Source: a virus. Taken from it: a stretch of DNA of 64,000 nt. The stretch's first letter is position 1, and every line of letters begins with the position of its first letter. The notes below the pieces were generated by a model. The model was not told the DNA's origin. It saw nothing but the letters and a program-made list of their open reading frames with translations, and did no database searches. Of the stretch, positions 11,953-32,626 are shown one piece after another. The stretch is taken from positions 2,563 to 66,562 of the IMG/VR virus record IMGVR_UViG_3300011443_000014. The stretch is one strand, 5' to 3'. The position numbers and the translations under genes were made by a program.

Positions 11953-14900
11953 CTACTTCGACCGGCGCGCCATCCGGTCAAACCGGGCGCGAGGTTCCCC
12001 GCCGACGTCTTCGATGGCCCGCATCACCGCCGCCGGCACCTGGCGCTCGAGCCATTCTTCGGTGGCGCCGACCGGCGCATTGAGCTCGAGCGTCACGTAG
12101 AGGTCGCCGCCGCCCGTGCCGATGGCCGCGCGCTCGAGCCACGACTCGAGACGGTCCAGCGGCACGATGGCTTCCGGGCCCGCCTCGCCGGCGATGACCG
12201 GGGTCGCCTGGCGCACGATGCCGCCGTCGGCCATCTCGGGAAGTTCGATATTCCCGCCGTCAGGCAGGCCGTCCGGGTACCGATACCGGATCGGGACGTT
12301 GATCTCCGGGATCTCGATGCGGCTAAATGACTCCTCGACCGCCGCCGCGCCGTCGGCCGCCGCATCCGGGATGCTGCCCCCAAGGTGCTTGATCAGGATG
12401 TCGAGACGCCCGATCAGCGTGTTGATCCCGTCGACCATGCGCTCCGCGGCCGGCTTGAACTTCTCGCCCACCAGCCCCGCCTGTTCGGCTTGCTCGAGCA
12501 GGAGCTTCGTTCCTTCGTCGAGCTCGAGGTTCCACATTTGCGAGGCTTCCCACGCCTTCTGCAGTTGCGGCTGCATCAACCGGAGGGCGTCTTCGGCGCT
12601 GGCACCACCGGCCGTCAACGTGCCGAACGACTTCACGAGGATCCCCGTCAGGGCGTCGAACGACTGCTGCGTGATCAGGCCGGAATTCGACAGGCCGACC
12701 AGCATGTCGTCAACCCCGCTCAGGACCTCGAACAGTTCCTTGTTCTTCGTGACGAGGCCTTCCCAGCCGAGGATCTGACCCAGGAACCCTTCGGCGTTCA
12801 CGCCAGCCGCCGCGAGGACGTCGCGGATAGTCGCCAGACCGGGGCCCATGACGTTCAGGGCCTCAACGACCGACAGGCCTTTCGCCAGCAGGGCGCCGAA
12901 CGCGGCTTCCGCCAGCACCGCGATCGTCGGGAGGTTTTCCTTCAGGTCAGCGATGAAGTCGGCCGACAGTCCATCCTTCCCCTTCTCGCTGATGGCTTCG
13001 AGGATGGCCTCGAGGTCCTTCGATCCAGTTTGGAATCCCGTGATCAGCGCCACGAAGTTCGTCGCGATTTTGTTGAAGCCTTCCGCCGCGAGTTGTGTGC
13101 TGTGTTCGAAGACCTCCTTCAGCGCGGCCTTCGCGGCTTCCTTATCCTTGTCCTTCAGCATCGCCGCCCAGAGGTCACGCCCGATGATCCGGCCTTCGGC
13201 GGCGGCCTGGCGGAAGTCAGTCGCCAGTTTCTGGACGCGCTCGTTCACCGCGGCGAACGCCTTCTCGATCTCGAGGACCGCGGCCTCGTACTCCTTCGCG
13301 TTGCGCGCCTTCAGCAACTTGTCGAGGGTCAGGCCGGCGTCGTGCGCCATCTCGTTCAGTTTGGCCAGTCCGCCGTGGGCCTGGACGAAGGCCTCCCGGA
13401 CTTTGTTCACTTCCTTCTGTTCAGACTTCAGGAGTTTGTCGAGACCCTTCCCGATGACCGCGCCGAGGCCGGCGCCGATCAGCGAGCCGATGACGGGGAT
13501 CGCCGCGCCGACGGCCTTCCCGATACCGGCGCCGATCTTCCCGCCGAGGGCGGTGCCGAGTTTCTTCCCGATGTCCTTCCCGAACGCCTGACCGATCTGG
13601 CCGCCGATGCTGGCGCCGATGGCCTTGCCGACAGAGCCGCCACCCTGAATCGCCGACAGGATGACCTGCGCCAGATGCGCGCCGAACTGGTCGGCCCCGC
13701 CGAACATACGCTCGAGGACCGTCGGGTTCGCGGCCTCGAACCCTTCGATGGTGGCGACCGTGATCGCCGTCTGCAGTTGGCCGCCGACCGACGAGGTCAA
13801 CGTGTCGCCGATGCGGTCGGTCGTCTCCGTCGAGATCGACACGTCGTCGAGGACGCCCGAGAAATCCGCGAACGGGTTGCCCGCCACACCGGCGGCGACC
13901 GGGCCGACTTTCTGGATGTTGTCGAGGACCTGGGCCAACCCTTGAATCTGAAGCCGGGCAGCCAATGCTTGCTCGGCCCACGCGAAGAAAATCGGCGGGA
14001 CCTGATCGCCCTTCGACACGATGATCGCGATCGACTTGTCGATCAGGTCGGCGAATTCCCCCGCGATGTCCGGGTTCAGTTGGGACACGGCGAGGCCGGT
14101 CTCGCGGATCGCGCCGGCCATCTCGAGCACCTTGTCGATGGTGTCCTGACCGGTTATCCGGTCCTGTAGCGCCTGGAACTTCTTCGCGGCTTCGTCGGCC
14201 GCGGTGCCGCCGTCCTTCAGGGAGGCCTCGTAGAGTTTCACGACCTCGACCGCGACCTTCGCCTTCGTCGCGACTTCCTCGATGGACTTGCCCATCTTCA
14301 GGCCGGCGCGGATGTTCGCCTTCGTGGGTTCGTCGAGGCCATTCAGGATGCGCTGGAACTTCGCCAGTTCGTCGGACAGGGACGCGACCTTCGGCAGGGT
14401 CGACGACGCCACTGCCTTCAGACCGCCAAAGCCCTCGACCACCGTCTTCACGCCGACGCCGGCCTTCCCCGCCGCCTCCGCGCCCTTGTTGAACGCGTCC
14501 GACACAGCCGTCGTGATCTTCGCCCCCTTCAGGCCTTCGAGAGACGCGCCACGAAGGCCGAGGCTGTACGCCATCAGCGCCGTCTCGGCTTCCTGGACGG
14601 AGCCGACCTGGTAGCCGAGGATCTTCGTGATCTGCTTGACGTTCTTTTCGGCCGCCGACGCGGCTTGTGCGGTGGCCTGGGTCGCTTGATCCATCGCGTT
14701 CAGGGCATCGACCGCCGACCAGATGATCGCAATGATGCCGGCCGCCGCCAACCCATAGAGGGCTGCCGTCAGACCCGCGACGAACACCGTCGACCCGGCC
14801 GCCGCGGTGCCGACGTTCGTCAGTCCCACCTTCAGCGCCGTCAGGCCACCGGCCACGGACTCGAGCTTGATGAACCAGCCGAACGCCTCGACGAGTTTCC

Positions 14901-16206
14901 CGACCAGTCCGGTCAGGTTGCCGACGGTGTACGCCAGCGGACCGGCCGCCGCGAGGATGGCCAGGAACGCGAGGGCCGTCGTCTGGACCGGTTGCGGCAG
15001 TTGAGCGAACAGGTCCGCCGCCTTGCCGAGGCTTTCGACCAGCGGCTTGACCGCGTTGAGGGCGGACGTCAGGGCCGGGGCCAAACGCTCGCCCAGTGCG
15101 ATCGACGTCGCTTCCAGTTGGGCCTTGAATTCCCCGAACGTCGCCGCGACGGTCTTTTTGTTGCGCTCGAACGCCGCGTCCAGTTGACCGCTCCCGGTCT
15201 TCAGGGTGTTCAGGGATGACGTCAGGGCATTCGACTGCGATCCGGCCGCGCCCATGACGCCGGCCAGCGCTCGGACGTTGCCGAATACCGCCGCGAGGGC
15301 TTCCTCGTTCCCCTTCGCGGCATCCGTGAGGTCGATCAGGGCGGCGCTCAGGCCTTTCTCAGCGACCGCCTGGCGCAGTTCACCGACCGACGTGCCGAGA
15401 GTCTGGAGGGCGACTTCGGCTTCTTTGGTGGGCTGCAGGAGGGTCGTCAGGACCGCCCGGATGCCGGTCGTCGCTTCCGCCGCGTCGACGCCGAGGCGGG
15501 TATAGGTGGCGATGAACGCGCCGACTTCCTCGAACGACACGCCGACCTGGCTGGCGATGCCGACCACGCGCCCGAGGACGCCGGCCAGTTCGTTCGCTTC
15601 CGCACCGCCGAGGCGGACGGTTTCGAACAGGATGTCCGCCGCGCGCGCCGCCGACAGGTTCTCTGCCCCGTACGCCGTGACCGCAGACGTGATCGCCCGG
15701 GCGACGTCGTTCACTTCACCGAGGCCGACCGCCGATCCCTTCGCCGCCGCCGTCAGGACGTCGATAGCCGCCGCCCCCTTGATGCCCGTCGACGTGACGA
15801 CGAGCAGACCCTTCGCCAGTTCGTTCGGACCTTTGCCGACCGCGGGTCCGAGGGCCAGGACCTCCTTCCGCATCGCTTGCATGGAGTCTTCGCTGATGCC
15901 CGACAGGGTGACGACCTGGGTCATCGAGCGTTCGAAGTCGGTGGCGAATTTGGAGGCCGCAAGGCCAGCGCCGATCAGGGGCGCCGAGATCGACAGGGAC
16001 AGGGCCATCCCCACCGATTCGAGGCGGCTACTGGTCTTTTCCAGTGCCGCCCCGATTTTGTCGTACCCGCTGGCGAACTTCTTCGACGAGTCGGTCGTCG
16101 AGCCAAGTCGCTTTTCGAACTTCGCCAGCGCATCGTCGACGCGCTCGACGACTTTCGTCGCCAAGTCGCGCATCATGATCGCGCCTTCGACCGTGCCGGC
16201 ATCCAT
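11953..16206 (-). CDS. Tail tape measure protein (TP901-type)
   Basis: 1417 aa, Ala-rich helical; DFERSMTQV, TRLGVDAAEATTGIR, MADGGIV..AGEAGPEAIVPL motifs; follows the chaperone genes. Confidence 0.95.
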   Translation of the reverse strand: MDAGTVEGAIMMRDLATKVVERVDDALAKFEKRLGSTTDSSKKFASGYDKIGAALEKTSSRLESVGMALSLSISAPLIGAGLAASKFATDFERSMTQVVTLSGISEDSMQAMRKEVLALGPAVGKGPNELAKGLLVVTSTGIKGAAAIDVLTAAAKGSAVGLGEVNDVARAITSAVTAYGAENLSAARAADILFETVRLGGAEANELAGVLGRVVGIASQVGVSFEEVGAFIATYTRLGVDAAEATTGIRAVLTTLLQPTKEAEVALQTLGTSVGELRQAVAEKGLSAALIDLTDAAKGNEEALAAVFGNVRALAGVMGAAGSQSNALTSSLNTLKTGSGQLDAAFERNKKTVAATFGEFKAQLEATSIALGERLAPALTSALNAVKPLVESLGKAADLFAQLPQPVQTTALAFLAILAAAGPLAYTVGNLTGLVGKLVEAFGWFIKLESVAGGLTALKVGLTNVGTAAAGSTVFVAGLTAALYGLAAAGIIAIIWSAVDALNAMDQATQATAQAASAAEKNVKQITKILGYQVGSVQEAETALMAYSLGLRGASLEGLKGAKITTAVSDAFNKGAEAAGKAGVGVKTVVEGFGGLKAVASSTLPKVASLSDELAKFQRILNGLDEPTKANIRAGLKMGKSIEEVATKAKVAVEVVKLYEASLKDGGTAADEAAKKFQALQDRITGQDTIDKVLEMAGAIRETGLAVSQLNPDIAGEFADLIDKSIAIIVSKGDQVPPIFFAWAEQALAARLQIQGLAQVLDNIQKVGPVAAGVAGNPFADFSGVLDDVSISTETTDRIGDTLTSSVGGQLQTAITVATIEGFEAANPTVLERMFGGADQFGAHLAQVILSAIQGGGSVGKAIGASIGGQIGQAFGKDIGKKLGTALGGKIGAGIGKAVGAAIPVIGSLIGAGLGAVIGKGLDKLLKSEQKEVNKVREAFVQAHGGLAKLNEMAHDAGLTLDKLLKARNAKEYEAAVLEIEKAFAAVNERVQKLATDFRQAAAEGRIIGRDLWAAMLKDKDKEAAKAALKEVFEHSTQLAAEGFNKIATNFVALITGFQTGSKDLEAILEAISEKGKDGLSADFIADLKENLPTIAVLAEAAFGALLAKGLSVVEALNVMGPGLATIRDVLAAAGVNAEGFLGQILGWEGLVTKNKELFEVLSGVDDMLVGLSNSGLITQQSFDALTGILVKSFGTLTAGGASAEDALRLMQPQLQKAWEASQMWNLELDEGTKLLLEQAEQAGLVGEKFKPAAERMVDGINTLIGRLDILIKHLGGSIPDAAADGAAAVEESFSRIEIPEINVPIRYRYPDGLPDGGNIELPEMADGGIVRQATPVIAGEAGPEAIVPLDRLESWLERAAIGTGGGDLYVTLELNAPVGATEEWLERQVPAAVMRAIEDVGGEPRARFDRMARRSK

Positions 16207-21514: not shown

Positions 21515-22666
21515 TTACGCCGCGCGCATGCGGACGCCGAGGTTCCCGTCGAGGATCTTCACGCCGTAGAGCACGTCGAGGGCCACGTAGACCTTCGACG
21601 TGTCACCGTCGTAGAACATCCGGGACCGGATGGCCAAGCCCGTGATGGGGTCGACGACCGACTCCACCTTCGCGCCCAGCTGGTTCGCAATCGACGGCAG
21701 CGGCGCCATCGCCAGCGCGGCCCAGTTCCGGTGGACCGCGATGTTCTGCGTCTTCGTCGCACCCGAGCCGCCCGACAGGACGACCGTCACGACCTGGTTG
21801 TCGACGAGCGCCGCCTTCAGCGGGGGGTAGATCGTCGCGCCCGTCACGACGCCCGTGCCGTCCGCCAGCGGGGCGTTCGTCAGGACATACTGCTGGGTCG
21901 CGCCCGTGAAGACGAGGATGTCGCCCGCCGCGAACTGCGCGGCCGCCGACACGCCGTCGAAGTTGATCGTCGACACGCCCGCGGCGAACGCGCCGTCAAC
22001 CGCACCCGCGAGGTCCGCCACCGTGGCGGAGGTCATCGACAGGCTGTTCTGGTTGGCGAACCACTCGACCCCGAACTTCGTGCCGAGCGTCCCGCGCATC
22101 TGCGTGTTGACGCCCGCATCGCCGGCGCCCTGCCACTGGCTGAACGCCGTCAGCGCCAGGAGCTTTTCCTCGAGGTAGCCGTCGATCATCCCGTGCAGGT
22201 CGTTCATCGGGACCTGGTTCGTGAACAGGACGCGCCGAGCCGCCGTCAGGTCCGCCACGGCCGCCGACGCCAGCGTGACGTCGGTGTACCACGGGATGAA
22301 CTTGATCAGCTGAATCAGCGCCTGATCGATGTTGTCCGCGAGCGCCACGGCCGCCGGGCGGATGTGGTCGTTGATGATCCGCTCGCCCGTGTACGCCAGT
22401 TCCTTGTCGGTCAGGGCGAACTTCACTTCCTTCCACTGATCGAGCTGGATGGTGACGGACTCGGGGTTGAGATCCTGCGCGGTCGACGGCGCGCTCTGCG
22501 CCGTGAAGGTGCCGGGCTTCGAGATCTGGATGCTCGAACCGGGCTGCTGTGGCGACTTGTCGTAGCCGCGATGGCACCGGGCCGCGAGGCCGAGCGCCTT
22601 TTCCAGCTGGATCAGCGCTTCGTTCGCATACCAGATGGGGTCATACGGGTTGATCACGTTGGACAT
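21515..22666 (-). CDS. Major capsid protein (P22 coat/gene 5 family)
   Basis: 383 aa; WYANEALIQLEKAL, VTIQLDQWKEVKFALTDKEL, HIRPAAVALADNID, LDVLYGVK. Confidence 0.92.
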   Translation of the reverse strand: MSNVINPYDPIWYANEALIQLEKALGLAARCHRGYDKSPQQPGSSIQISKPGTFTAQSAPSTAQDLNPESVTIQLDQWKEVKFALTDKELAYTGERIINDHIRPAAVALADNIDQALIQLIKFIPWYTDVTLASAAVADLTAARRVLFTNQVPMNDLHGMIDGYLEEKLLALTAFSQWQGAGDAGVNTQMRGTLGTKFGVEWFANQNSLSMTSATVADLAGAVDGAFAAGVSTINFDGVSAAAQFAAGDILVFTGATQQYVLTNAPLADGTGVVTGATIYPPLKAALVDNQVVTVVLSGGSGATKTQNIAVHRNWAALAMAPLPSIANQLGAKVESVVDPITGLAIRSRMFYDGDTSKVYVALDVLYGVKILDGNLGVRMRAA

Positions 22667-22804: not shown

Positions 22805-23602
22805 TCAGTCCACGATTTGCAACTGAAGGCCGGCCTTTTCGGCCTGGGCTTTGCTGTCCTTGTAGACCGACGCGTCTCGGGCTTGCTCCCGCGTGATCTT
22901 CAGCGTGTTCCCGACCTGCTGTGCGCCGTTCGCGGGGGTGTTCGTCCCACGGTTCGGTTCGAACAGGTGCGGGGCTTCACTCGTCAACGACGCGATCCAC
23001 TCTTCGACCTCGATGGGCTTCCCACCCGTCTTGCCGTAGTAGATCGTGCCGTCCTTGTACGGGACGAGTTTCCCGTCCTCGACCTTCCAGACGTCCTTCG
23101 CCCGGCGGGTCAAGTCGTTGATGGCGGTCGAGCGGATACCGGTCTTCGGGGCCGTCTGCGCGATCGCCGCGTTGATCAGGGTGTCGCCCAGCTGCGATTG
23201 CAGCGACGTCGCCTGGTCGGTGAACTTTTTGATGTCGGCTTGGAGGGCGGCAATCTGGGATTCGTGGTCGCGGCGCATCTTCTCGGTGCGCTTCGCGATC
23301 GCCTCCTCGAACTTGCCTTCCTTGATCAGTTTCGTCTCGGCGTTGGCTTCGCCGTCGGCCAGCCACTTCCGGTAGGCCTCGACGTCGACGCCCGTGTACT
23401 TCGCGGCCTCGTCGCGGGCGGCTTTCTCAGCGGCCGCGCGTGCCTGGCGTTCGGTGGAGAGCGCCGTCTTCAGCCCGCTCACGTCCTCGACGCCTTCGGC
23501 ATCGAGCAGGTAGGACCCGTCGGCTTGCTTCGTGTAGAGGGCTTTCAGCGCGTCCGCGAGGGCGCCGTGTTCGTCCGCTGTGACTTTGACTTTGAGGGCC
23601 AT
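22805..23602 (-). CDS. Capsid scaffold protein
   Basis: Start MALKVKV (GGAGA RBS); LYTKQADGSYLLD, VSGLKTALSTER, EAPHLFEP motifs; coiled coil; precedes the capsid gene. Confidence 0.85.
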   Translation of the reverse strand: MALKVKVTADEHGALADALKALYTKQADGSYLLDAEGVEDVSGLKTALSTERQARAAAEKAARDEAAKYTGVDVEAYRKWLADGEANAETKLIKEGKFEEAIAKRTEKMRRDHESQIAALQADIKKFTDQATSLQSQLGDTLINAAIAQTAPKTGIRSTAINDLTRRAKDVWKVEDGKLVPYKDGTIYYGKTGGKPIEVEEWIASLTSEAPHLFEPNRGTNTPANGAQQVGNTLKITREQARDASVYKDSKAQAEKAGLQLQIVD

Positions 23603-23645
23603 TCGTTCTCCGTGGCCATCCATCCCGGATGACCTGACGGAGGAT

Positions 23646-23674
23646 GTTGTAACGCAGTTCCCGGCGTTTGTCTA
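23646..23674 (-). promoter_or_regulatory. Putative sigma70-type promoter for scaffold/capsid
   Basis: TAGACA-17 bp-TACAAC on the minus strand. Confidence 0.5.
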
Positions 23675-24043
23675 GTCGGCGCCCCACAATTCGATGGACA
23701 GGTCGGTGTGAAACCGGCCCGGACTGAGGTCGAAGATCGCCGCGTCCCGCGCGCGTAGCGGGCGCAGCAGCAGTCGTTCGCCGCGGTCGGTCACGCCGCG
23801 AATCGTGTCGGCCACCACCGCCAGCGTCGTCACCGGCAACTCGAACCACCGCGAGTCGGTCCGGTACCGCAGAGTGCTCACGTCGGTCTCGAGGTCCGTC
23901 TCCAGACGCAGTTCGGCGGCGTAGGCGGTCAGGTCGCCACGCTGGACGGCGAACGGTCCGTAGGCCAGCGGGGGGTCATCCTGGCCGCGGTCCTTACCAC
24001 GCATGCCGGGCGGGATGTCGATAGGGTCGAGACGCACGCTCAT
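23672..24043 (-). CDS. Hypothetical protein, candidate immunity partner of the MuF fusion
   Basis: 123 aa; ATGA overlap with the MuF stop. Confidence 0.7.
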   Translation of the reverse strand: MSVRLDPIDIPPGMRGKDRGQDDPPLAYGPFAVQRGDLTAYAAELRLETDLETDVSTLRYRTDSRWFELPVTTLAVVADTIRGVTDRGERLLLRPLRARDAAIFDLSPGRFHTDLSIELWGAD

Positions 24044-27000
24044 TTGAAGATGTCCTCGAGACGTCGGCGCCCGAGATGCGTGATCCCCTTCGCGCGCGCC
24101 TTGGCGATGACCGAATTCCTGACCGCCGTGTCGCCGATCCGAATCGAGTCGATGTCGTCCCAGTCGATGCGGTGCTTGAACATCGTCTCCTGGCTGCCGC
24201 TCGTGTACTGCACGTTCTGCAGGTTGTTCCGGGAATGCACGCCGGATCGGGAATTCGGGTTCTGCGCGCCGTACGTGTCGCTGGCGTAGGCGAACCAGTC
24301 CAGCCGACGGAGCAGGTCGCCGCTCAGGGTCACGTTCGCGCGGCCGGTCTTCGCGCCCGTGTGCTGCCGGGTGAAGATGTAATCCGCCCCACCGGTCTGG
24401 ATGTCCGAGCTCGAGGACATGCCCGATACGCCGATCCCTTCGGAGTACCGGGTCGTCGTGGCCGACAACCCGCCGTTCTCGATCATCGACATGATCGTCG
24501 ACTCGCTCGAGCTCGAAAGCGAGTGACTGAAGTGGGTGATCTTCGTGTGCGCCTTCAGTTTCGCGGTCGCCGCGTCGGTGAACTGCAGACGCGGGCGCCC
24601 GAAGTCGTCCTTCGTCAACACGATGTCCGCCGGCGTGATGCCGACCTTCGTTTTGATTTCCGTCAGGACCTTCGCACGCTCGCTCGCGTTGAGGTCTTTC
24701 ACGCCCGTCTGGAACAGACGCACAAACGCGTTCTCGCCGTACTCCGCGATCTGCGCGTCGGTCGGGTAGGACACGGACCGGACGCCGAGTTTGTCCAGGG
24801 CGGCCTTCAGGTGCTTCGGGTCCGGGGTGCCGGCGCCGTTCTTCACGAAGATCTGGACCGTTCCGTCGTACGCCCAGCCCGAGTCGTCGGGTCGGTGGAA
24901 CAGGATCTCGGTATCCGCGTCGACCTGGACCTTGTAAGTCTTCCCGCTGATCCCGGAGTGCGCATTCGTGCCGGTCAGGTGTGGACGCTGTCCGTAGCCT
25001 TGCACGGATTGCTTCGGCATGTGGAACGGCTGCACCGCCCCCGGTTCGGCCGCCAGTTTCGTCGTCGCCCGAGTTTTCGCATCGCCCGTGAGCTTGAACT
25101 TGAATTCCGTGACGGGCTTTCCGCCGGCGCGCCCGCGATGGTCCGCGACCTGGCGCACGCGAATCTCGAAACCTTCGATGTCACCACCGTCGAAGGTCAC
25201 ACCAGACCCGGCGCTGGCGTTCTCGGCCTTCAGGCTGAGGGCGATCGCGTCGTCGTAGGAATTCTGGCTGTTCAGTTGGGCGCCGAAGACGTCCGAGCTC
25301 GAGCGTCGTCCGAGCACCGGGACCACGCGCGGCGGCGGCGGCGGGGCGTTGATGACGTTCAGGATCTCCGTGCGCTTGGCCGCCAGTTTCTTCGTCCTGG
25401 CGTCGAGCATCTTCACGATCCGGGCCTTCGTCGTCGGGTCCGCCTGAGGGAGCACGTCGTCGACGTACGCCTTCCAGCCGCCCTTCGACTTTTGCAGGGC
25501 CAGGACGTGGTCGATCTGCTTCACCGCCTTGGCGCCGAGGTCGTCCGCGCTCGAGATGCCAGCGCCGTCGAAGACCTGTTTGTAATACACGTTTTTGTTG
25601 ATGAACGAATCCCACTCCGTGATCTCGTCGAGGACGTTGTCGGGTTTCAGGCCGGCCTTCGCACGGAACAGGAACGACCCACCCTGGTCGATGCGCCGGA
25701 TCTGGCCGTTGCCGAGCACGACGACGTTGTCCAGACCCGTGCCCACGGCGTCCCAGTTGGCCGTCAGGACGTCGCCGACGAACCCGTCGAGGATCTGGTC
25801 GGCACGGTCCTTCGTCATCCCGAGGTTGCCGACGGTGCCTTTCACGTCGTCGAGGTACTTCGAGGCGAACACCTGACGCCCGTCCGCGAGGACGCCTGAC
25901 ACGGACTGCGGCGCGCCGATGCCGAGGTCGTTGTAGATGCGGTTCGCCAGCATCTCCCCTTGGGCTTGCTTGGCGTCGGGGTAGAACTTCACGTACCACT
26001 TCGAGCCGTCGGGCGCCTCGAACAGGCCACCCGGGTTCGACCCTCCCTGCGGGCCGACTTGCTTCTTCACCAGCGCCTCGAGGTCGACGGCCGGCGCGGG
26101 TCCGTGGAGTGATTGCGGCAGCACCGCTGGCGCGGACGGGATCACGGGAGGCCCGACAGGGGGAGGGACTACCGGCGCGGCATTCTTCGCGTCGATGACC
26201 GCGTTCAGTTTCGACGTGAACGTCGCGCCACCCTTTTTGTAGTCGTCGACGAGGGCCTTCTGTTCGACCGCCGTCAACTTCTTCAGTTTGTTGATCGTGA
26301 GCGTGTGCGGTCCGCTGGTTCCGAACAGGGCGTTGATCTCGTCGATCACCCCGTTAGCGCTGAGGGCAGGTCCTGGCAGGACTGACTTCGCCTGGCCGTT
26401 GATCATCGCGGCGATCGCGTCGTCGACATTCGTCGAGAACGTCGCGTTCATGTGGTTGATCGCCGTGGCCTGGTCGGCCGCCGTCAGGACGTTCAGTTTC
26501 TTCGCGGCATCGAGGCCGAGGCCGTTCTGTTGGACCCACTGCACGGACGACGGGGTCAGGTTCGACGTGCTCGAGGCCCCAGTCTTCGCGGCCTTCTTTT
26601 TCGCCGCGTGCTTCACCGCGGCCGCCTTTTTCGACGCCTTGTACGCCGCCAGTTCCGGGTCGAGGTCGACCACCTTGGCGACGATGGTCTTCGCCGACTT
26701 CGCCCACGCCTTCAGCACCTCCTGCGTCCCGTGTGAACTCTCGACCCAGTACTTCCCGTCGGCCTTGAAGATGGTCGGCAGGGCCTGAGAGAACTGCATC
26801 GTCGTCGGCGCGACCTCCTGGGCGAACGCCGACGTGACGTGGATGTCTTTCAGGTCCACGATGACGTTACTCGTGACCGGCGTCTTTTTGATCGCCGTGT
26901 CCCACGCCGTCTGCGCAATCCCGTTGTGGGTCGCCACCTTCGGGAACGGCACGTCGACGAGGTTCCCCACGCTGCCGAAGTTCACCGCGTTCGGGTCTTC

Positions 27001-28833
27001 GATGGCCTTCAGTTTCAGCGCGGGCTTCTGGAACTGGACGAAGTCGTCGATGTCGACGATCTCCACCTTCACCGGTTTCCCGAGGGCCTTGGCCGCCATC
27101 ATCAGGTCGGCCGACTTCTGGTCCGGAGCGACGTAATAGTTCGTGTAGCCGGGTACGGGCGACTGCTTGAACACCAGCACGGAGTCGGTCGTGTTCGTCA
27201 GGGCTTTCTGCGTGCCTTTCAACGATGCCGACTTCGCGCCCTTCGTGACGATCAGGTTGTCAGGGAATAGTTCGCTCGCTTGACGGTTCGGCATGGCGCC
27301 GATGATGTCGTCCGGGCTGATCAGCGCGTGCAGTTCGTCCTTGACCGCACTCCCCGGCAGGTCGTCGAACAGTTGGGTCGCTTCGTTGAACCCCAGTTCC
27401 TGTTTGAGATCGTGAACCTTCGGCCACCCCGCCTTCGTGAAGTCGTCGAGGTCGTAGAGCTTCATCGTCAGGTCGTCGGCGCCGTTCGCCCATTCGCCGT
27501 ACGCCTTCACGTTCCCGCGCCAGATGTAGGTCTTCCCTTCCCAGCGGACCGCCGTCACCGTCGGGGTCAATCCGTTCGGCATCGTGCCGGTCGCCAGATA
27601 CGACTCGATCTGCGCGGCCTTCGCGCCCGCCGCGGTCGTGTCGACGATCCCGGCGATGTCCTTCATCTTCACCGTCACCGTCGGCAGGTCGGAGATCTGG
27701 ACGGCGTCGTTCAGGTAGTCCAGGTGCGCCGGGTTCCACGTCGCCGCCGGATCGATGACCGTGAACGGCGAACCCGTCACCTTCCCCGCGTCGTCGACGC
27801 CGAGCGATCGGAGTTTCAGCAGATTCGACGGCACCGGCGGCGCCGGCCTGACGAACGGGGGCACACTCCGCGGCAGGTCCGGGATCGAGGGCCGAGGATA
27901 CGCCGGCGGCGGCACGAAGGGCTTCGCGCCCTTGAACGGCTTCGGGGCGCCTTTCCCTTCGGTCGGTTTGCCACGGACCAGCGCCATGACGCAGCGACAC
28001 TGCGGGTGTGCCGGCGGGGTGTCCTTCGGGCCGTACGTGGTTTTGAACGGTTCGGTCGGCTGGACCTGTTGCCCTTGCAGGGGCGCACAGTAGGGGCACA
28101 GACGGTCGTCCGGGGTCACGATCCAGCGCTTGACCATCCCGGCGCCGATCTCCCCCCGGTTCTTCGCTTCCGTCCACGCGTCCAGTTGGCCGGCGTGCAT
28201 CGCCGACAGGACCTCCGTCCTGGCGATGACCTCGCCGCGGGACCGGAGCAGTCGCTTCCGGTAGCGCTCGACGGCCTTGGCGGCGGCAGCCTGGGCCTTG
28301 GGCGTCGTCGCCTGGGTGAACCGCTCCTGGGCAAACTTGCCGAGCGCCGCCGCACGCCGGGGGTCGAGGCCGACCACCGCGCGCACCTGACGCGCCACGG
28401 TTTCCGCGGTCCCGCCGCCGGCGACGGCCTGAGCCACGATGTCCCGGACGGCGTTTCGTTGCGACTCCTGAATCTGGACGATCAGGTTCGATGAGCGGGT
28501 CGAGGCCCAGAGGACCGCCGAGGGGTTCACCAGCCGGAACTGACCGCCGAGGCCGAAGTGTGTCGGGACCGGGGCGTCGATCTGGCCGAGGGCCGCGCCC
28601 GCCGCCATGGCCTGGGACGTCGCCTGGAACAGGGCGCTTTCGAACGCCTGGGCGCCGGGGGCCCAGCCCTGGGCGACCGTCTGGGCGGCCTGGGTCCACT
28701 GCCCGGTCTTCAGACGGGACTCGACGAGCCGCCAGTTCACCGACGCCCCGGCCTTCTCAGCGGCCTCGAGGACGACGCGACGGTATCCGGGGATCTGGGC
28801 GTCGGCCGAGGCCAGCAACTCGCGCCAGCCCAT
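24040..28833 (-). CDS. MuF (gp7/gpF-type) minor head protein fused to ParB-like repeats, a kinase-like domain and an ART-like domain
   Basis: MuF: VIARTE, KRWIVTPDDRLCPYC, PPAHPQCRC; kinase: GPQGGSNPGG..WYVK..EMLANRIY..DVLTANWD..RIDQG; C-terminus: THFSH..IENGGL..DYIFTR..QETMFK. Confidence 0.88.
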   Translation of the reverse strand: MGWRELLASADAQIPGYRRVVLEAAEKAGASVNWRLVESRLKTGQWTQAAQTVAQGWAPGAQAFESALFQATSQAMAAGAALGQIDAPVPTHFGLGGQFRLVNPSAVLWASTRSSNLIVQIQESQRNAVRDIVAQAVAGGGTAETVARQVRAVVGLDPRRAAALGKFAQERFTQATTPKAQAAAAKAVERYRKRLLRSRGEVIARTEVLSAMHAGQLDAWTEAKNRGEIGAGMVKRWIVTPDDRLCPYCAPLQGQQVQPTEPFKTTYGPKDTPPAHPQCRCVMALVRGKPTEGKGAPKPFKGAKPFVPPPAYPRPSIPDLPRSVPPFVRPAPPVPSNLLKLRSLGVDDAGKVTGSPFTVIDPAATWNPAHLDYLNDAVQISDLPTVTVKMKDIAGIVDTTAAGAKAAQIESYLATGTMPNGLTPTVTAVRWEGKTYIWRGNVKAYGEWANGADDLTMKLYDLDDFTKAGWPKVHDLKQELGFNEATQLFDDLPGSAVKDELHALISPDDIIGAMPNRQASELFPDNLIVTKGAKSASLKGTQKALTNTTDSVLVFKQSPVPGYTNYYVAPDQKSADLMMAAKALGKPVKVEIVDIDDFVQFQKPALKLKAIEDPNAVNFGSVGNLVDVPFPKVATHNGIAQTAWDTAIKKTPVTSNVIVDLKDIHVTSAFAQEVAPTTMQFSQALPTIFKADGKYWVESSHGTQEVLKAWAKSAKTIVAKVVDLDPELAAYKASKKAAAVKHAAKKKAAKTGASSTSNLTPSSVQWVQQNGLGLDAAKKLNVLTAADQATAINHMNATFSTNVDDAIAAMINGQAKSVLPGPALSANGVIDEINALFGTSGPHTLTINKLKKLTAVEQKALVDDYKKGGATFTSKLNAVIDAKNAAPVVPPPVGPPVIPSAPAVLPQSLHGPAPAVDLEALVKKQVGPQGGSNPGGLFEAPDGSKWYVKFYPDAKQAQGEMLANRIYNDLGIGAPQSVSGVLADGRQVFASKYLDDVKGTVGNLGMTKDRADQILDGFVGDVLTANWDAVGTGLDNVVVLGNGQIRRIDQGGSFLFRAKAGLKPDNVLDEITEWDSFINKNVYYKQVFDGAGISSADDLGAKAVKQIDHVLALQKSKGGWKAYVDDVLPQADPTTKARIVKMLDARTKKLAAKRTEILNVINAPPPPPRVVPVLGRRSSSDVFGAQLNSQNSYDDAIALSLKAENASAGSGVTFDGGDIEGFEIRVRQVADHRGRAGGKPVTEFKFKLTGDAKTRATTKLAAEPGAVQPFHMPKQSVQGYGQRPHLTGTNAHSGISGKTYKVQVDADTEILFHRPDDSGWAYDGTVQIFVKNGAGTPDPKHLKAALDKLGVRSVSYPTDAQIAEYGENAFVRLFQTGVKDLNASERAKVLTEIKTKVGITPADIVLTKDDFGRPRLQFTDAATAKLKAHTKITHFSHSLSSSSESTIMSMIENGGLSATTTRYSEGIGVSGMSSSSDIQTGGADYIFTRQHTGAKTGRANVTLSGDLLRRLDWFAYASDTYGAQNPNSRSGVHSRNNLQNVQYTSGSQETMFKHRIDWDDIDSIRIGDTAVRNSVIAKARAKGITHLGRRRLEDIFK

Positions 28834-28836
28834 GTT

Positions 28837-29076
28837 CTAGGCCTTCAGGGACAGGTTGTGGGTTTGCAGGTCGGACATCAGGCGGCGAACGAGGTCGTCG
28901 TCGATCTGGTTGGCGAGGGTTTGGGCCGCTGGACGGAGGTACCGCTCGACAAGGTCGACGTGGACGACCTTCTCGCCGAAGTCGAACGAGACTTCGAAGA
29001 ACTTCGGCGGGGTCGGGCAGACGAGGGCCGCGACCGGGACCGCCAGCAGGGACAGCAGGAACGACCGCCGGTTCAC
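28837..29076 (-). CDS. Small protein with twin-arginine-like leader and a capsid-protein-like segment
   Basis: GTG start overlapping the portal TGA, GGAGG RBS; (M)NRRSFLLSLLAVPVAAL..EVSFDF..ERYLRPAAQTLANQIDDDL. Confidence 0.7.
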   Translation of the reverse strand: MNRRSFLLSLLAVPVAALVCPTPPKFFEVSFDFGEKVVHVDLVERYLRPAAQTLANQIDDDLVRRLMSDLQTHNLSLKA

Positions 29077-30560
29077 TCCTGGCCTCCCGCGCCCTGGTCC
29101 CCTGGTTCGGGGGGGGGCGTCGGCTGGCCAGGTTGCCCTGGCACCGGCGCCGGGTCGGGCGGTTCTTCGGCTTCGATGGTCGTCCGTTCTTCCTCGTACT
29201 CGACGTTCGGGCGGGCAATCTCGCCCGTCTGCAGGTTCCAGTAGAGGGTCTTTCCCGAGATGCCGCCGGCTTGCCACGCCTTCACCAGCGAATCGAGCTC
29301 CTGCGCGGTCAGGCGGGTCTCGAGGAAATCCGTGTTCAGTTGGATCGACACCTTCGAGGCCGAGTCCACGTCGACGTCGCCGTACCCCTGCCACCATGCG
29401 TGGATTCGCAAGGCCTGAGTGAGGCCCATCGACTGCGCCCGGGCCAGCAGCCCGAGGGCTGAGGTCTCGCCGGCGTGCCTGAGGCGCACGGCTTCGGCCG
29501 TCTCCTGGACTCCGGGTTGGCTCTCGAGCAGACGGGCGCCGACCGTCGCCATCTGATGTTCTTTCCGGTCGAGGGCTTTCTCCACGGCGCCGAGGCCGGT
29601 CCCCGTGAATTCCAGCATCGCCACCCGGGCGTCCTTCGAGGGGATCACCCACGCCGTCCCGCTGCCGATCTTCAGGGGAGTCGCGTTGTTCGTCCAGCCG
29701 GTCACGTAGGGCGTCGGTAGCGCCGTGAAGTGCAGCCCGTATTCGTAGTCGACGCTCGACCGCCAATGCGACAGGTTCAACAGGGCGAGGTCGAGCAGGG
29801 GCGGCTTCGCGACCGCCGGTTCAGGGCGTCGAGGTCCGAGAAAGACGAACGGGATGAACGGCAACGGCTTCCCGCGACGGATGAACGCCGACCACGGGCC
29901 GGGAGTGTAGGTCTTCTTCCCGTTCACCGTCGTCTCGACCCACGTCCTCGAGGCCGCCACCTTCTGGCCGCCCTCCGTCGCCATCAGGGCCAGTTCACGA
30001 TACGTGCACTTGCGTTCCTGTTTGTAGGGGTCGGTCGGTGACGGCACCCAGCCGTCGTCTTCGAGCACCACGCGGTCGAGTACAACCTGGCCGCTCTCCA
30101 TGCGCGCTTGCCAGTTCACAATCGACTCGGCCCGCCAGAGGGACCAGTACGGGCGGTTCAACGTCTCGGACCAGTCGACACTGACTCCCGCGCGACCGAC
30201 GACCAGCAACTCCTCCAGCGAGCTCGAGACGAATTCGAGCAGCCCTTCGCCATAGAGCGTGATCCCGCTCTCGACGTCGACGCTGGTCGGCACCTTCACC
30301 TGAGCGGGCTTGCGCAGCACCATCCCGGTCAGGCCGATGATGGTGCGCTCGACGGCCGGGAAAAACGTCCCGCGATCGAGGTACGCCTTGAATTCACGGG
30401 CGTCCGCGTGATCGCAACCCTCGAGCAGGGGCACGTAGGCCACGCCAGCGGAACGAACGGCCTGTTCCCCGGCGTAGGTGTCACGACAGGGCTTCCACCA
30501 GAGGGCGGCGGCTTGCAGGTAGGCCGGATGTCGTGTCGTGATGTCAGGGGTCTCTGGCAC
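29073..30560 (-). CDS. Portal protein (DUF4055-like)
   Basis: 495 aa directly after TerL; YLDRGTFFPAVERT, PPLLDLALLNLSHW..DYEYGLHFTALP. Confidence 0.9.
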   Translation of the reverse strand: MPETPDITTRHPAYLQAAALWWKPCRDTYAGEQAVRSAGVAYVPLLEGCDHADAREFKAYLDRGTFFPAVERTIIGLTGMVLRKPAQVKVPTSVDVESGITLYGEGLLEFVSSSLEELLVVGRAGVSVDWSETLNRPYWSLWRAESIVNWQARMESGQVVLDRVVLEDDGWVPSPTDPYKQERKCTYRELALMATEGGQKVAASRTWVETTVNGKKTYTPGPWSAFIRRGKPLPFIPFVFLGPRRPEPAVAKPPLLDLALLNLSHWRSSVDYEYGLHFTALPTPYVTGWTNNATPLKIGSGTAWVIPSKDARVAMLEFTGTGLGAVEKALDRKEHQMATVGARLLESQPGVQETAEAVRLRHAGETSALGLLARAQSMGLTQALRIHAWWQGYGDVDVDSASKVSIQLNTDFLETRLTAQELDSLVKAWQAGGISGKTLYWNLQTGEIARPNVEYEEERTTIEAEEPPDPAPVPGQPGQPTPPPEPGDQGAGGQE

Positions 30561-30590: not shown

Positions 30591-31997
30591 TCAGCGGCGG
30601 CGCATGCTGCCGAATCCCGCGATCGAGACGACGCCGCCCCCGGTTCCGTGAACGAGATCGTCGAGGGCGCCCGACGCCGCGTCGGCCTGGTCGTCGTGGC
30701 CACCGGGGAGGTTTTCCAGTTCCTTCACGAACACCGCGTTCCAGGGCGCACGCAGCAGGTAGACGTTCCGGGCCTTCGCCGCCACCGCGAGGGGTTTCCA
30801 CCGTGTTTGCTTCGGGCCAGTCGCACGTTCGCCTGAGTAGTCGTAGCCCAACATCTCGAGCCGACGACGATAGACCACCGCTTTCCCGCTCGAGCCCGGT
30901 TCCTGTTCTTCGCGCACCGCGCACGCCACCCCGTCGTCACGCGCGGTGGATTTGATCTCCGCGTCGACGTCGGCCGGGTCCCATTGTCCGTGCCGCACGT
31001 CGGCGATGATGACGCGGCCGTCTTCGTGAATCCCGAGTTTCACGCCGGCGGTCCAGTCCGGGTCCTGTGCCGACACGGAGGTCTCGTCCACTTCCGTCGA
31101 GGCCACGTCCCAGAAGCGACACCAGCGGATGTACCCCTCCGGGATCGCGTCGACGTAGCGGAACCAGTCGCCACGGAAGATGGTCCCCGCCGTCGCACGC
31201 ACGTTCCAGTTCCCACGCCGCAGCCGCATCTGGTCGACGTAGGGCAGGGCCTCGAGACGCGCCTCGTACGACGGGTCGACCGTGCGCAGCGCTTGGTTTT
31301 CTTCGAGGGTCATCGGCTGAAACGACAACGACAGCGGCGACACGACGTTCCCGAATTCCGCCTTCAGGGCTTCCGCGCTCTCGCCCCAGTGCAGGTTGTT
31401 CCCCCGACGCACGAACCACCGGACCACGCCGGCGCGGGTCCCGATGGGGAACCCGGTCTCGGCGTCGATCCACCAGTCGACGAGTTTCCGCAGCCAGCCG
31501 CCCACCGGGTCGTCGTCAGGCACCGGGTTCGCGGTCGCGCGGCAGTAGGGCCGCACGCCAGACACCGACCGCAACCTCGAGATGAGGTACCAGAACTGCC
31601 CCTCCGTGAATTCTTCCAGCTGGTCGAACAGGAGGGTCGCGATCTGCGCGCCTTTCCAACCGAGCTTGTCCTTTTCCAGCTGCAGGGACCGGAACTGCAC
31701 GACGTTCCGACCGGGCCAGACCCAGTCCATGTAGTTCGACCGGCCGCCGATCAGCGGGTAGAGGCCCGTCGACTCCTGCCAGAGGCCACCGACGGCCTTC
31801 AGTTGTGGATTCGTGCGCCGGAAGATCACCGCGTTGTAGTTCGTGCGGCGGAGCACGTGTCGGGTCGGTTCGAGCAGGAGGCCGTAGGACTTCCCCCCTC
31901 CTGCCTGACCACCGCCGATGCAGATGTCGGCCCGGTTCTGCGCGAACGCCGTCTGGCCGCCCGCTTGAGGGCCGATCTGCAGGTCGGTCGGGAGCAT
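30591..31997 (-). CDS. terL: Terminase large subunit
   Basis: Start reassigned to ATG 31997 (TGATG coupling); Walker A GGQAGGGKS; RATANP; nuclease motifs RFWDVA, DWTAG, HDDQADA. Confidence 0.93.
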   Translation of the reverse strand: MLPTDLQIGPQAGGQTAFAQNRADICIGGGQAGGGKSYGLLLEPTRHVLRRTNYNAVIFRRTNPQLKAVGGLWQESTGLYPLIGGRSNYMDWVWPGRNVVQFRSLQLEKDKLGWKGAQIATLLFDQLEEFTEGQFWYLISRLRSVSGVRPYCRATANPVPDDDPVGGWLRKLVDWWIDAETGFPIGTRAGVVRWFVRRGNNLHWGESAEALKAEFGNVVSPLSLSFQPMTLEENQALRTVDPSYEARLEALPYVDQMRLRRGNWNVRATAGTIFRGDWFRYVDAIPEGYIRWCRFWDVASTEVDETSVSAQDPDWTAGVKLGIHEDGRVIIADVRHGQWDPADVDAEIKSTARDDGVACAVREEQEPGSSGKAVVYRRRLEMLGYDYSGERATGPKQTRWKPLAVAAKARNVYLLRAPWNAVFVKELENLPGGHDDQADAASGALDDLVHGTGGGVVSIAGFGSMRRR

Positions 31998-32626
31998 CAG
32001 CGGCCGATCCAGCCGGTCGGGGTCTTCCTGAAGTCGAGGGGATGCTGGCACTTCGGACAGGTAATCGGGGTTCCGGGGAGCATCCGAGAGAATTCGGCGT
32101 TCCACGGAACGTCCCAGACCACCCGGGCGAGGGACAGCAGGCCGGTCGCGGGGGCCGCCGCGTTCGCCGGGACACGTCCGAACACGGTCTGGCAGTGGCC
32201 GCACTCGATGGTCGGGTCCGGATCGCGGCCTCCCCCGAACGGTTTGCCGTAGCTGCTGGACCCTGGCGCCTCGAGGGCCTGGGCGAGCGGGGGCGTCGGC
32301 AAACCAGGGGCGAAATCCTTAATGATTTTGAGGGCCGCACTCCCCTGGACTGGGCCAGACGGGGTCCCCTGGTCGGCCCCCTGGTCGGCCCCCTGGTCGC
32401 CTGGCTCGAGCGCCTGGCTCGAGATGCCTGGCGCGGGCCTCGAGAGCAGGCCGGCCAGCAGGTGGATCGAGCCGGTCGTTGACTCGAGGGCCGCCAGCAG
32501 CTGGCCTTGGATGGCTTCCCAGACCAGCGGGTCCTCTAGCCGGGAGTGAAACCGTGGGTCGAGGGTCTGGATTGTCAGGTCGAGCTTCAGGAGATCGCCG
32601 ATCCGGGTCGTTCGGGTCGTTCGCAT
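31997..32626 (-). CDS. Hypothetical protein with C-terminal zinc ribbon
   Basis: CGHC...CPKC; coupled to terL. Confidence 0.65.
   Translation of the reverse strand: MRTTRTTRIGDLLKLDLTIQTLDPRFHSRLEDPLVWEAIQGQLLAALESTTGSIHLLAGLLSRPAPGISSQALEPGDQGADQGADQGTPSGPVQGSAALKIIKDFAPGLPTPPLAQALEAPGSSSYGKPFGGGRDPDPTIECGHCQTVFGRVPANAAAPATGLLSLARVVWDVPWNAEFSRMLPGTPITCPKCQHPLDFRKTPTGWIGR
32366..32399. repeat. 12-bp tandem repeat (~2.8 copies)
   Basis: cccctggtcggc unit encoding DQGA repeats. Confidence 0.7.

Follow-up and report, generated by a model that had tools for sequence, protein, structure and literature searches.

The DNA considered here is a stretch of 64,000 nucleotides (the window) of the IMG/VR virus record IMGVR_UViG_3300011443_000014, positions 2,563 to 66,562, with a G+C content of about 66% throughout. 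According to the list of open reading frames (ORFs) of the window, positions 24040..28833 of its minus strand are occupied by a single uninterrupted ORF of 1,597 codons, with GAAGG upstream of its ATG, which lies in a phage head module between the portal gene on one side and the scaffold gene on the other. The product of this gene, P0001, is a MuF-fusion (polyvalent) head protein of 1,597 amino acids, which consists of an N-terminal MuF domain, two middle regions, a domain with the predicted fold of an atypical protein kinase and a C-terminal module of 410 residues that ends in a predicted ADP-ribosyltransferase (ART) domain of the DarT type. The same architecture was found in four other proteins (P0002-P0005), the identity to P0001 being 43-46% across residues 900-1597.

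The MuF / SPP1 gp7-type head-morphogenesis domain comprises residues 5-289 (27967..28821, minus strand). The Pfam model PF04233 (MuF) matches residues 128-283 with E 2.4e-16 and 60.9 bits, the curated cut-off being 29.6, phrog_3517 'head morphogenesis' matches residues 5-289 with E 3.7e-38, and TIGR01641 gives a match with E 6e-6. With a hidden Markov model (HMM) score above the cut-off and a position in the head module near the portal gene, the protein can be placed in the MuF family, in agreement with a preliminary description of this DNA that had recognized an N-terminal MuF domain from the letters alone. Outside this domain, no match to Pfam, NCBIfam, PHROGs or PADLOC models was obtained, even at permissive thresholds and with the segments scanned separately.

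The kinase-like domain occupies residues 915-1180 (25294..26091, minus strand). The preliminary description had located it at 25560-26070, an interval that takes in the N-lobe and the catalytic loops and falls short of the whole domain. All the motifs quoted there are present, namely GPQGGSNPGG (residues 927-936), WYVK with K949, the helix with E960, DVLTANWD (1021-1028) and RIDQG (1047-1051). They contain a Gly loop (931-936), K949, E960, a catalytic segment with D1021, N1026, D1028 and N1036, and a metal-binding segment R1047-x-D1049; residues G931, K949, E960, D1021, N1026, D1028, N1036, R1047 and D1049 are invariant in 80 of 80 aligned homologous segments. Judging by the order of the motifs, K949 would be the ATP-binding Lys, E960 the Glu of helix C, D1028 and N1036 the catalytic Asp and Asn, and D1049 the metal-binding Asp, and the active site looks intact.

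An AlphaFold2 model of the kinase region, obtained from the alignment of the 80 segments, has a predicted local distance difference test (pLDDT) value of 97.1 and a predicted template modelling (pTM) score of 0.91. Its best match among solved structures in the VIA comparison is CtkA of H. pylori (3akj; Z 16.8, 217 aligned residues, root mean square deviation (rmsd) 3.2, 17% identity), followed by PI4KII-alpha (Z 14.8), CotH (Z 14.3) and Legionella MavQ (Z 13.5) and, at lower ranks, by Fam20 (Z 13.2), HipA (Z 12.1) and actin-fragmin kinase (Z 11.6). Foldseek agrees with VIA in this respect, the CtkA match having E 1e-6. The model therefore places the domain, as a prediction, among the bilobal folds of the atypical CtkA / PI4KII / CotH / HipA group, and the earlier designation of a PI3/4K-HipA-like kinase fits this grouping well. 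Among the kinase models of Pfam and NCBIfam, such as HipA_C and PI3_PI4_kinase, none matches the region at permissive thresholds (E <= 10 / <= 1), and a profile search of the PDB gave weak matches alone (LepB, E 0.043; CtkA, E 0.63). Since proteins, lipids or sugars are the substrates of the nearest relatives, the fold does not reveal what this kinase would phosphorylate; in bacterial hosts the substrate would most likely be a protein. The domain is also present in large proteins of cultured phages of Yersinia, Escherichia, Enterobacter, Morganella, Pseudomonas, Aeromonas and Gordonia. One of them, gp129 of the Yersinia phage fHe-Yen8-01 (2,146 amino acids; L001:1270-7710), shares the kinase-like domain with 35% identity over about 225 residues and is annotated as 'ADP-ribosyltransferase toxin; phage particle associated protein'. 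Stand-alone homologues are rare (one was found in a length-restricted search), and the domain is nearly always situated within giant phage proteins.

The C-terminal module (residues 1185-1597) was modelled with AlphaFold2 as 413 residues from an alignment of 116 segments, with pLDDT 93.6 and pTM 0.92. Its second half, residues 1420-1597 (24043..24576, minus strand), is the DarT-like ART domain. In the VIA comparison with 48,161 solved chains, the first four places are taken by DarT structures, aligned over model residues 236-413 (residues 1420-1597 of the protein): DarT1 of E. coli C7 (8BAQ; Z 11.5, 154 aligned residues, rmsd 3.8), Thermosipho DarTG (Z 10.2), Thermus DarT (Z 9.8) and M. tuberculosis DarT (Z 9.4). 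After them come the tRNA 2'-phosphotransferase Tpt1 (Z 6.9) and then protein-modifying ART-like effectors (Z 5.6-6.5). Among the AFDB clusters, the top matches are uncharacterised proteins with the whole module, and the next ones include several DarT/DUF4433 entries over the same C-terminal part. Foldseek with the whole 413-residue model found no PDB match at E <= 1e-3; the DarT entries had high probability yet E of about 0.05, and the exhaustive VIA search resolved them. Sequence and profile searches of the PDB with the module found nothing.

Profile comparison was made against 14 genuine DarT sequences taken from bacterial genomes. Local alignment of the module with hhalign gave 90% probability and E 1.5e-6, the LxxLDW motifs being aligned and E1549 falling on the catalytic Glu of the AEFLV strand. 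The global alignment (74%) pairs H1437 with the His of DarT strand 1, the helix-GGL segment with NLxxIxxGGL, and D1484-Y1485 with the DYVPFYF strand. As controls, the kinase alignment gave 1.6% and the Alt/VIP2-type ARTs of giant relatives gave 0.2%. As modelled, the domain has a DarT-type fold, and by profile alignment H1437, Y1485 and E1549 would form the H-Y-E triad, with the Glu in strand 5. The motifs cited in the preliminary description are all there, and the H-Y-E arrangement proposed in it was recovered with H1437 as the conserved His. The same description had named the absence of kinase and ART folds from predicted structures as the outcome that would speak against its proposal; both folds were predicted as claimed. 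Its assignment to the DarT/DUF4433 type holds for the fold (Z 11.5 to 9.4) and not for family membership, the ART of P0001 being a separate, unannotated family inside the 410-residue module and not a member of the Pfam DarT family. Two other assignments do not fit. Kinship with Alt-type ARTs has a profile probability of 0.2% versus 90% for DarT, and membership in ART-PolyVal (PF18760, H-Y-D) is not supported by any Pfam match at E <= 10, with Glu, not Asp, found in 114 of 116 sequences. A wider profile comparison with Tox-ART-HYE1 and ART-PolyVal was dropped, as 800 sampled genomes gave none and one match, respectively.

Conservation was counted in 116 module sequences 23-40% identical to the query. 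Four residues, S1473, D1477, D1512 and D1519, are conserved in all 116, R1462 in 115, E1549 in 114 (Q in the other 2) and R1510 in 110. The second His of HFSH, H1437, is conserved in 108 sequences, H1434 being variable, and position 1485 is occupied by Tyr in 93 and by Phe in 12; G1455/L1456 and D1484 are also conserved. Such a pattern would be expected for an active enzyme. In DarT, the proton-abstracting arginine is R51 (DarT2) or R52 (DarT1, with D54) (PMC11543638). The IKxRR segment of DarT aligns to GMSSxxD of the module, the invariant R1462 and D1477 belong to the same loop region, and these two residues may replace the catalytic arginine of DarT.

The N-terminal half of the module, residues 1185-1419 (24577..25281, minus strand), belongs to the same model (pLDDT 93.6) and is a beta-rich alpha+beta domain with a helical connector. 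Structure matches were obtained at Z <= 5 alone (TBP, type III secretion system chaperones, triphosphate-tunnel enzymes), no invariant charged residue was found in the 116 sequences, and a feature search of the ESM Atlas with residues 1185-1420 gave no usable match. A triphosphate-tunnel/CYTH reading was rejected, as its Z of 4-4.6 is in the noise range and an invariant charged residue is lacking. This half is co-conserved with the ART domain in the AFDB clusters and, because of the noise-level fold matches and the lack of invariant charged residues, is regarded as a probable non-catalytic partner domain.

A HMMER search of 1.84 billion cluster representatives (clusters at 50% identity) yielded 1,065 matches to the module at E <= 1e-3, of which 278 reach E <= 1e-10. 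Most of the matches lie C-terminally in proteins of 750 to >5,000 residues. With so many matches and with both domains folding with high confidence, the observation is far beyond chance.

In the head module, the order of genes is large terminase (TerL, 30591-32204), portal (29073-30560), an ORF of 79 amino acids (28837-29076, minus strand), the MuF-fusion gene, an ORF of 123 amino acids, scaffold (22805-23623) and major capsid protein (21515-22666), and the same order was found in relatives; the tape measure gene is located at 11953-16206. The head module is of the standard siphophage type, and the virus is an uncultured siphophage. Its capsid protein is 39% identical to the counterparts in Dinoroseobacter phage R5C and Pseudanabaena phage Pan1, which at the level of sequence indicates distant kinship only with cultured phages, and megablast of the MuF-fusion gene against 50,697 cultured-phage records gave no match. 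The 79-residue product matched a twin-arginine translocation (TAT) signal model weakly (E 0.0085) and a fragment of a P22 coat protein model (E 0.054), both below the curated cut-offs.

Between the MuF and kinase-like domains of P0001 lie two regions of another character. Middle region 1 (residues 340-730; 26644..27816, minus strand) follows a Pro-rich linker and contains weak internal repeats that end in V-D-[LI]-D. It has no match in Pfam, NCBIfam or PADLOC and no homologue among the 167 collected relatives, and its conservation is poor even in the closest of them. The r1/r3 pair of repeats gave z 3.7 versus shuffles and the other pairs z 1.0-1.9; a ParB-like triple repeat was considered, of which just that one pair exceeds shuffles. 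Middle region 2 (residues 755-905; 26119..26571, minus strand) is helical and consists of two weakly similar halves, which align with each other at z 4.1 versus shuffles, and no Pfam or NCBIfam match to it was found.

Directly downstream, the TGA of the MuF-fusion gene overlaps with the ATG of the 123-residue ORF (23672..24043, minus strand) as ATGA. By this overlap, the small ORF is translationally coupled to the gene, and its product is a candidate immunity or partner protein. Its counterparts in the two closest relatives with known context (L027 and L029) have the same position and 25-29% identity, and members of this fast-evolving family come right after the ART gene in 14 of the 61 viral loci, kinase-less ones included. 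No match to it was obtained in Pfam, NCBIfam, PHROGs or PADLOC; no homologues were found in cultured phages, and the IMG/VR motif scan gave no locus. A word-indexed search gave four proteins, one of them new (P0172), whose context is uninformative. An immunity or chaperone role would fit the precedent of MuF toxins (PMC5576092; PMC11699363); the ORF may just as well be an ordinary gene of the head module.

The distribution of the module was studied by motif scans, each with a single peptide pattern. The scan of IMG/VR revealed 61 viral loci, in most of which the ART end is situated at most 25 residues from the stop codon; 10 of the 61 ORFs are cut by the locus edge. At least 37 of these loci have the kinase in the same ORF as the module. 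Among 151 collected module proteins, the kinase was found in 69, an Alt-type ART in 33 and all three domains in 29, and the MuF domain is detectable by phmmer in 16. Giant relatives also hold NUDIX, WGR and 2H domains (Pfam), and 16 of the 167 collected relatives bear the kinase without the module. In prokaryotes, a scan of one genome each from about 185,000 species found the motif at six loci; the family is therefore mainly viral, the two patterns compared being slightly different.

On three actinobacterial plasmids, a kinase-like gene, an ART-module gene and a conserved ORF of 146-167 amino acids are three adjacent genes. These blocks belong to pFRL4 of Streptomyces sp. F2 (L095:4619-9971), pKP058 of Kitasatospora (L098:4505-10007) and a plasmid of Mycolicibacterium fortuitum (L097:4815-9905). 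They come after genes for ATP/GTP-binding, replication-relaxation, ParB-N and DUF4417 proteins, and the two plasmids from Streptomycetaceae also have a gene for an ADP-ribosylglycohydrolase about 5 kb downstream of the block. Fusion in phages and adjacency on plasmids, taken together, suggest joint deployment of the kinase and the ART. A cultured and experimentally tractable carrier of the ART module is Pseudanabaena phage Pan1, whose gp15 ('head morphogenesis protein', 927 amino acids; L096:3697-6847) contains the whole module (E 2e-42) without the kinase and is followed by an ORF of 110 amino acids. In the related Dinoroseobacter phage R5C (L030), the MuF protein is a plain one of 368 amino acids, and the endolysin gene comes directly after it. 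No homology was detected between the 123-residue ORF and the small ORFs of the plasmids and Pan1, or among these three small-ORF families mutually.

Summarizing these data, we consider it on balance probable that the gene encodes a polyvalent MuF head protein whose kinase and DarT-like ART act on the host after ejection with the DNA. Through its N-terminal MuF domain, the protein would be attached in a few copies to the portal inside the capsid, and the rest of the chain would be cargo carried on flexible Pro/Ala/Lys-rich linkers, namely the atypical kinase and the 410-residue ART module. On infection, the protein would exit the capsid along with the DNA. Inside the newly infected cell, the kinase would use ATP to phosphorylate host proteins, and the ART would move ADP-ribose from NAD+ onto a host macromolecule. 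The presumed result is that host functions or defences are shut down ahead of phage gene expression, and the product of the overlapping 123-residue ORF may restrain the ART in the producing cell.

Several observations weigh against this interpretation. At least 14 complete module ORFs have no kinase in the ORF or within 6 kb; therefore the two enzymes need not cooperate, and such kinase-less members show that their coupling is not obligatory. The ART has no match to Pfam DarT (PF14487) at E <= 10, nor do PADLOC DarT models match residues 1400-1597, and in the profile alignment no equivalent of the DarT catalytic Arg (R51/R52) could be placed confidently. Fold similarity does not fix the substrate. 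Antidote genes of the macrodomain (DarG), NADAR and ARH types have no match at E <= 1 in the source record, which is 66,921 bp long and estimated to be 65% complete. Finally, a protein of 170 kDa would have to unfold for passage through the tail.

When any particular target is named, our confidence is lower than for the overall picture. A nucleic acid (bases or ends of single-stranded DNA) seems somewhat more likely than a protein as the target of the ART. A more specific proposal is made tentatively, namely that a capsid-delivered ART of the DarT type modifies host nucleic acid at injection and forms a conserved cassette with a dedicated kinase, possibly directed to the same target. Should a phage use a DarT-type ART on host nucleic acid, the chemistry of the DarTG anti-phage defence would be turned against the host.

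With the same mode of delivery, the ART could instead modify proteins of the host, for example RNA polymerase or translation factors, like Alt of phage T4, its likeness to DarT reflecting shared H-Y-E ancestry. This is possible and, in our opinion, doubtful. Most characterised phage-packaged ARTs do act on proteins (T4 Alt; Bxa, PMC11699363), SopF, CopC and OspC3, which modify proteins, are among the weaker fold matches (Z 5.6-6.5), and the catalytic arginine of DarT was not mapped. However, the four best structures and the sole significant profile match are DarT, and the common motifs reach beyond the triad to LxxLDW and the Glu strand. Moreover, 33 of the 151 relatives already have an Alt-type protein ART in the same polypeptide, which suggests that the second ART does something different.

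The protein may also be a MuF polymorphic toxin as defined by Jamet et al. Either the whole protein or its C-terminus, once released, would then serve bacterial competition or an advantage of the lysogen and not phage takeover, with the 123-residue ORF as the cognate immunity protein by which carrier cells are protected. The layout is suggestive: N-terminal MuF, toxin-like C-terminal domains and a small overlapping ORF downstream, with a small ORF after the ART gene in phage relatives, Pan1 and the plasmids alike. Pan1, with a long MuF protein and a small ORF, differs from R5C, with a short MuF protein and no such ORF, in the same sense, and there are precedents in Bxa with Bsi and BAH (PMC11699363) and in the MuF toxins (PMC5576092). 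Nevertheless, we consider this reading unlikely. The record, itself estimated as 65% complete, contains no integrase or resolvase match (PF00589, PF00239), and the module was found in 61 viral contigs versus 6 loci in about 185,000 prokaryote genomes, although with slightly different patterns. The three families of small ORFs have no detectable mutual homology, and the small ORF may be an ordinary head-module gene.

It is still less probable that the kinase and the ART constitute one pathway with a single target, in which a phosphate added by the kinase is capped with ADP-ribose (compare Tpt1 and 5'-phosphate ends) or an ADP-ribose mark is phosphorylated against removal. Fusion of the two domains is indeed seen in at least 37 of the 61 viral loci, both are found together in 69 of 151 proteins, and their genes are adjacent on plasmids. 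Tpt1 is the next-best fold match behind DarT (Z 6.9), and the 2H and NUDIX domains of giant relatives are processors of ADP-ribose derivatives. On the other hand, at least 14 complete module ORFs and the cultured Pan1 have no kinase nearby, 16 of 167 collected proteins have the kinase without the module, and more than 1,000 residues separate both domains in giant proteins; polyvalent proteins typically combine unrelated activities (PMC5512222). The idea that the extra domains are non-enzymatic, structural or DNA-binding decorations for head assembly or genome packaging, which the role of MuF proteins in head morphogenesis and the middle 560 residues without enzymatic signature might suggest, is very improbable, since near-absolute conservation of the ATP-binding/phosphotransfer residues and of H1437, R1462, S1473, D1477 and E1549 across families 23-40% identical is the pattern expected of active enzymes, not scaffolds.

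Injected phage proteins act ahead of any phage gene expression, yet few have been characterised. P0001 belongs to a very large unannotated family (more than 1,000 clusters at 50% identity), in which a DarT-like ART is attached C-terminally to head proteins of phages, in most cases accompanied by a CtkA-like kinase. Should nucleic acid prove to be the target, this ART would be the first counterpart of the bacterial anti-phage DarT toxins that is viral and delivered by the virion, and a new means of taking over the host or suppressing its defences. The kinase family, as little studied as the ART, is accessible to experiment, since it occurs in cultured phages of Yersinia, Escherichia, Pseudomonas and Gordonia. 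Family models for both domains would let thousands of 'hypothetical' giant phage proteins be annotated.

Among the known systems, the closest in organization are the polyvalent proteins of phages and conjugative elements described by Iyer, Burroughs, Anand, de Souza and Aravind in 2017 (PMC5512222). Like them, P0001 combines a MuF anchor with several unrelated effector enzymes, including ART and kinase classes, in one large polypeptide of a virion module, is predicted to be packaged in the head and delivered with the DNA, and has relatives both in phages and on conjugative-type plasmids. At least two unrelated activities in one polypeptide encoded among virion or transfer genes, one mark of the polyvalent type, are found here as MuF, a kinase fold and an ART fold in the head module. 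However, the ART of the polyvalent proteins belongs to the H-Y-D ART-PolyVal / Tox-ART-HYD2 clade, whereas the present one is H-Y-E and DarT-like. Their kinase lacks the C-terminal subdomain and is distributed mainly in Verrucomicrobia, Chlamydia and Bacteroidetes, whereas in the present kinase 217 residues align with CtkA, the helical C-lobe included. The Pfam LPD models of that work did not match the MuF-fusion protein.

The MuF polymorphic toxins (Jamet et al. 2017, PMC5576092), of which Bxa with Bsi and BAH is a characterised case (PMC11699363), similarly combine a MuF domain at the N-terminus with a toxic enzyme, in many cases an ART, at the C-terminus, and are followed immediately by a small ORF of <150 amino acids (123 here). 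P0001 differs in having two enzymatic domains and not one, and its ART is of another clade than the described MuF ARTs. In addition, no integrase and no hydrolase-type immunity gene were found in the record, and the module is rare in bacterial genomes.

DarT1 and DarT2 are the DNA ADP-ribosyltransferase toxins of DarTG (PF14487; PDB 8BAQ, 7OMV, 7OMU, 7YK3; PMC11543638, PMC5179494). The present domain resembles them in the His of strand 1 followed by a helix and GGL, the aromatic residue in the DY strand, LxxLDW and the aligned strand with the catalytic Glu. In contrast to DarT, it has no membership at the HMM level, it is preceded by an obligatory half-module of about 235 residues, the Arg of the IKxRR loop is unaligned, R1462 and D1477 being invariant instead, and there is no DarG or NADAR partner in the record. 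DarT is a host-borne defence, whereas the present ART is a presumed weapon borne by a phage. The kinase-like domain, in turn, shares its predicted fold (Z 16.8 to 11.6) and catalytic residues with CtkA (H. pylori JHP940), PI4KII-alpha, CotH, MavQ, Fam20/Four-jointed, HipA and actin-fragmin kinase. It differs from them in identity of at most 17%, in having no HipA_C or PI3_PI4_kinase match and in its location, mostly inside giant phage proteins.

Head-packaged ARTs such as T4 Alt are well known (PMC9503650) and are comparable in being capsid-borne and injected early against host macromolecules, which for the present ART is presumed. Alt is, however, an R-S-E (VIP2-type) ART, and the present domain gave 0.2% against the Alt-type ARTs of its own giant relatives. 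In a 2022 survey of viral NAD+/ADP-ribose systems, DarT-like ARTs were given for the ORF28 family of arthropod viruses alone, and no description of a cassette of a kinase and a DarT-like ART was found in the literature. The preliminary description had spoken of a candidate for an undescribed system; the cassette is indeed new, but MuF head proteins with injected effectors were already established (PMC5512222, PMC5576092), and it is therefore a new cassette, not a new kind of system, within the known theme of MuF toxins and polyvalent proteins.

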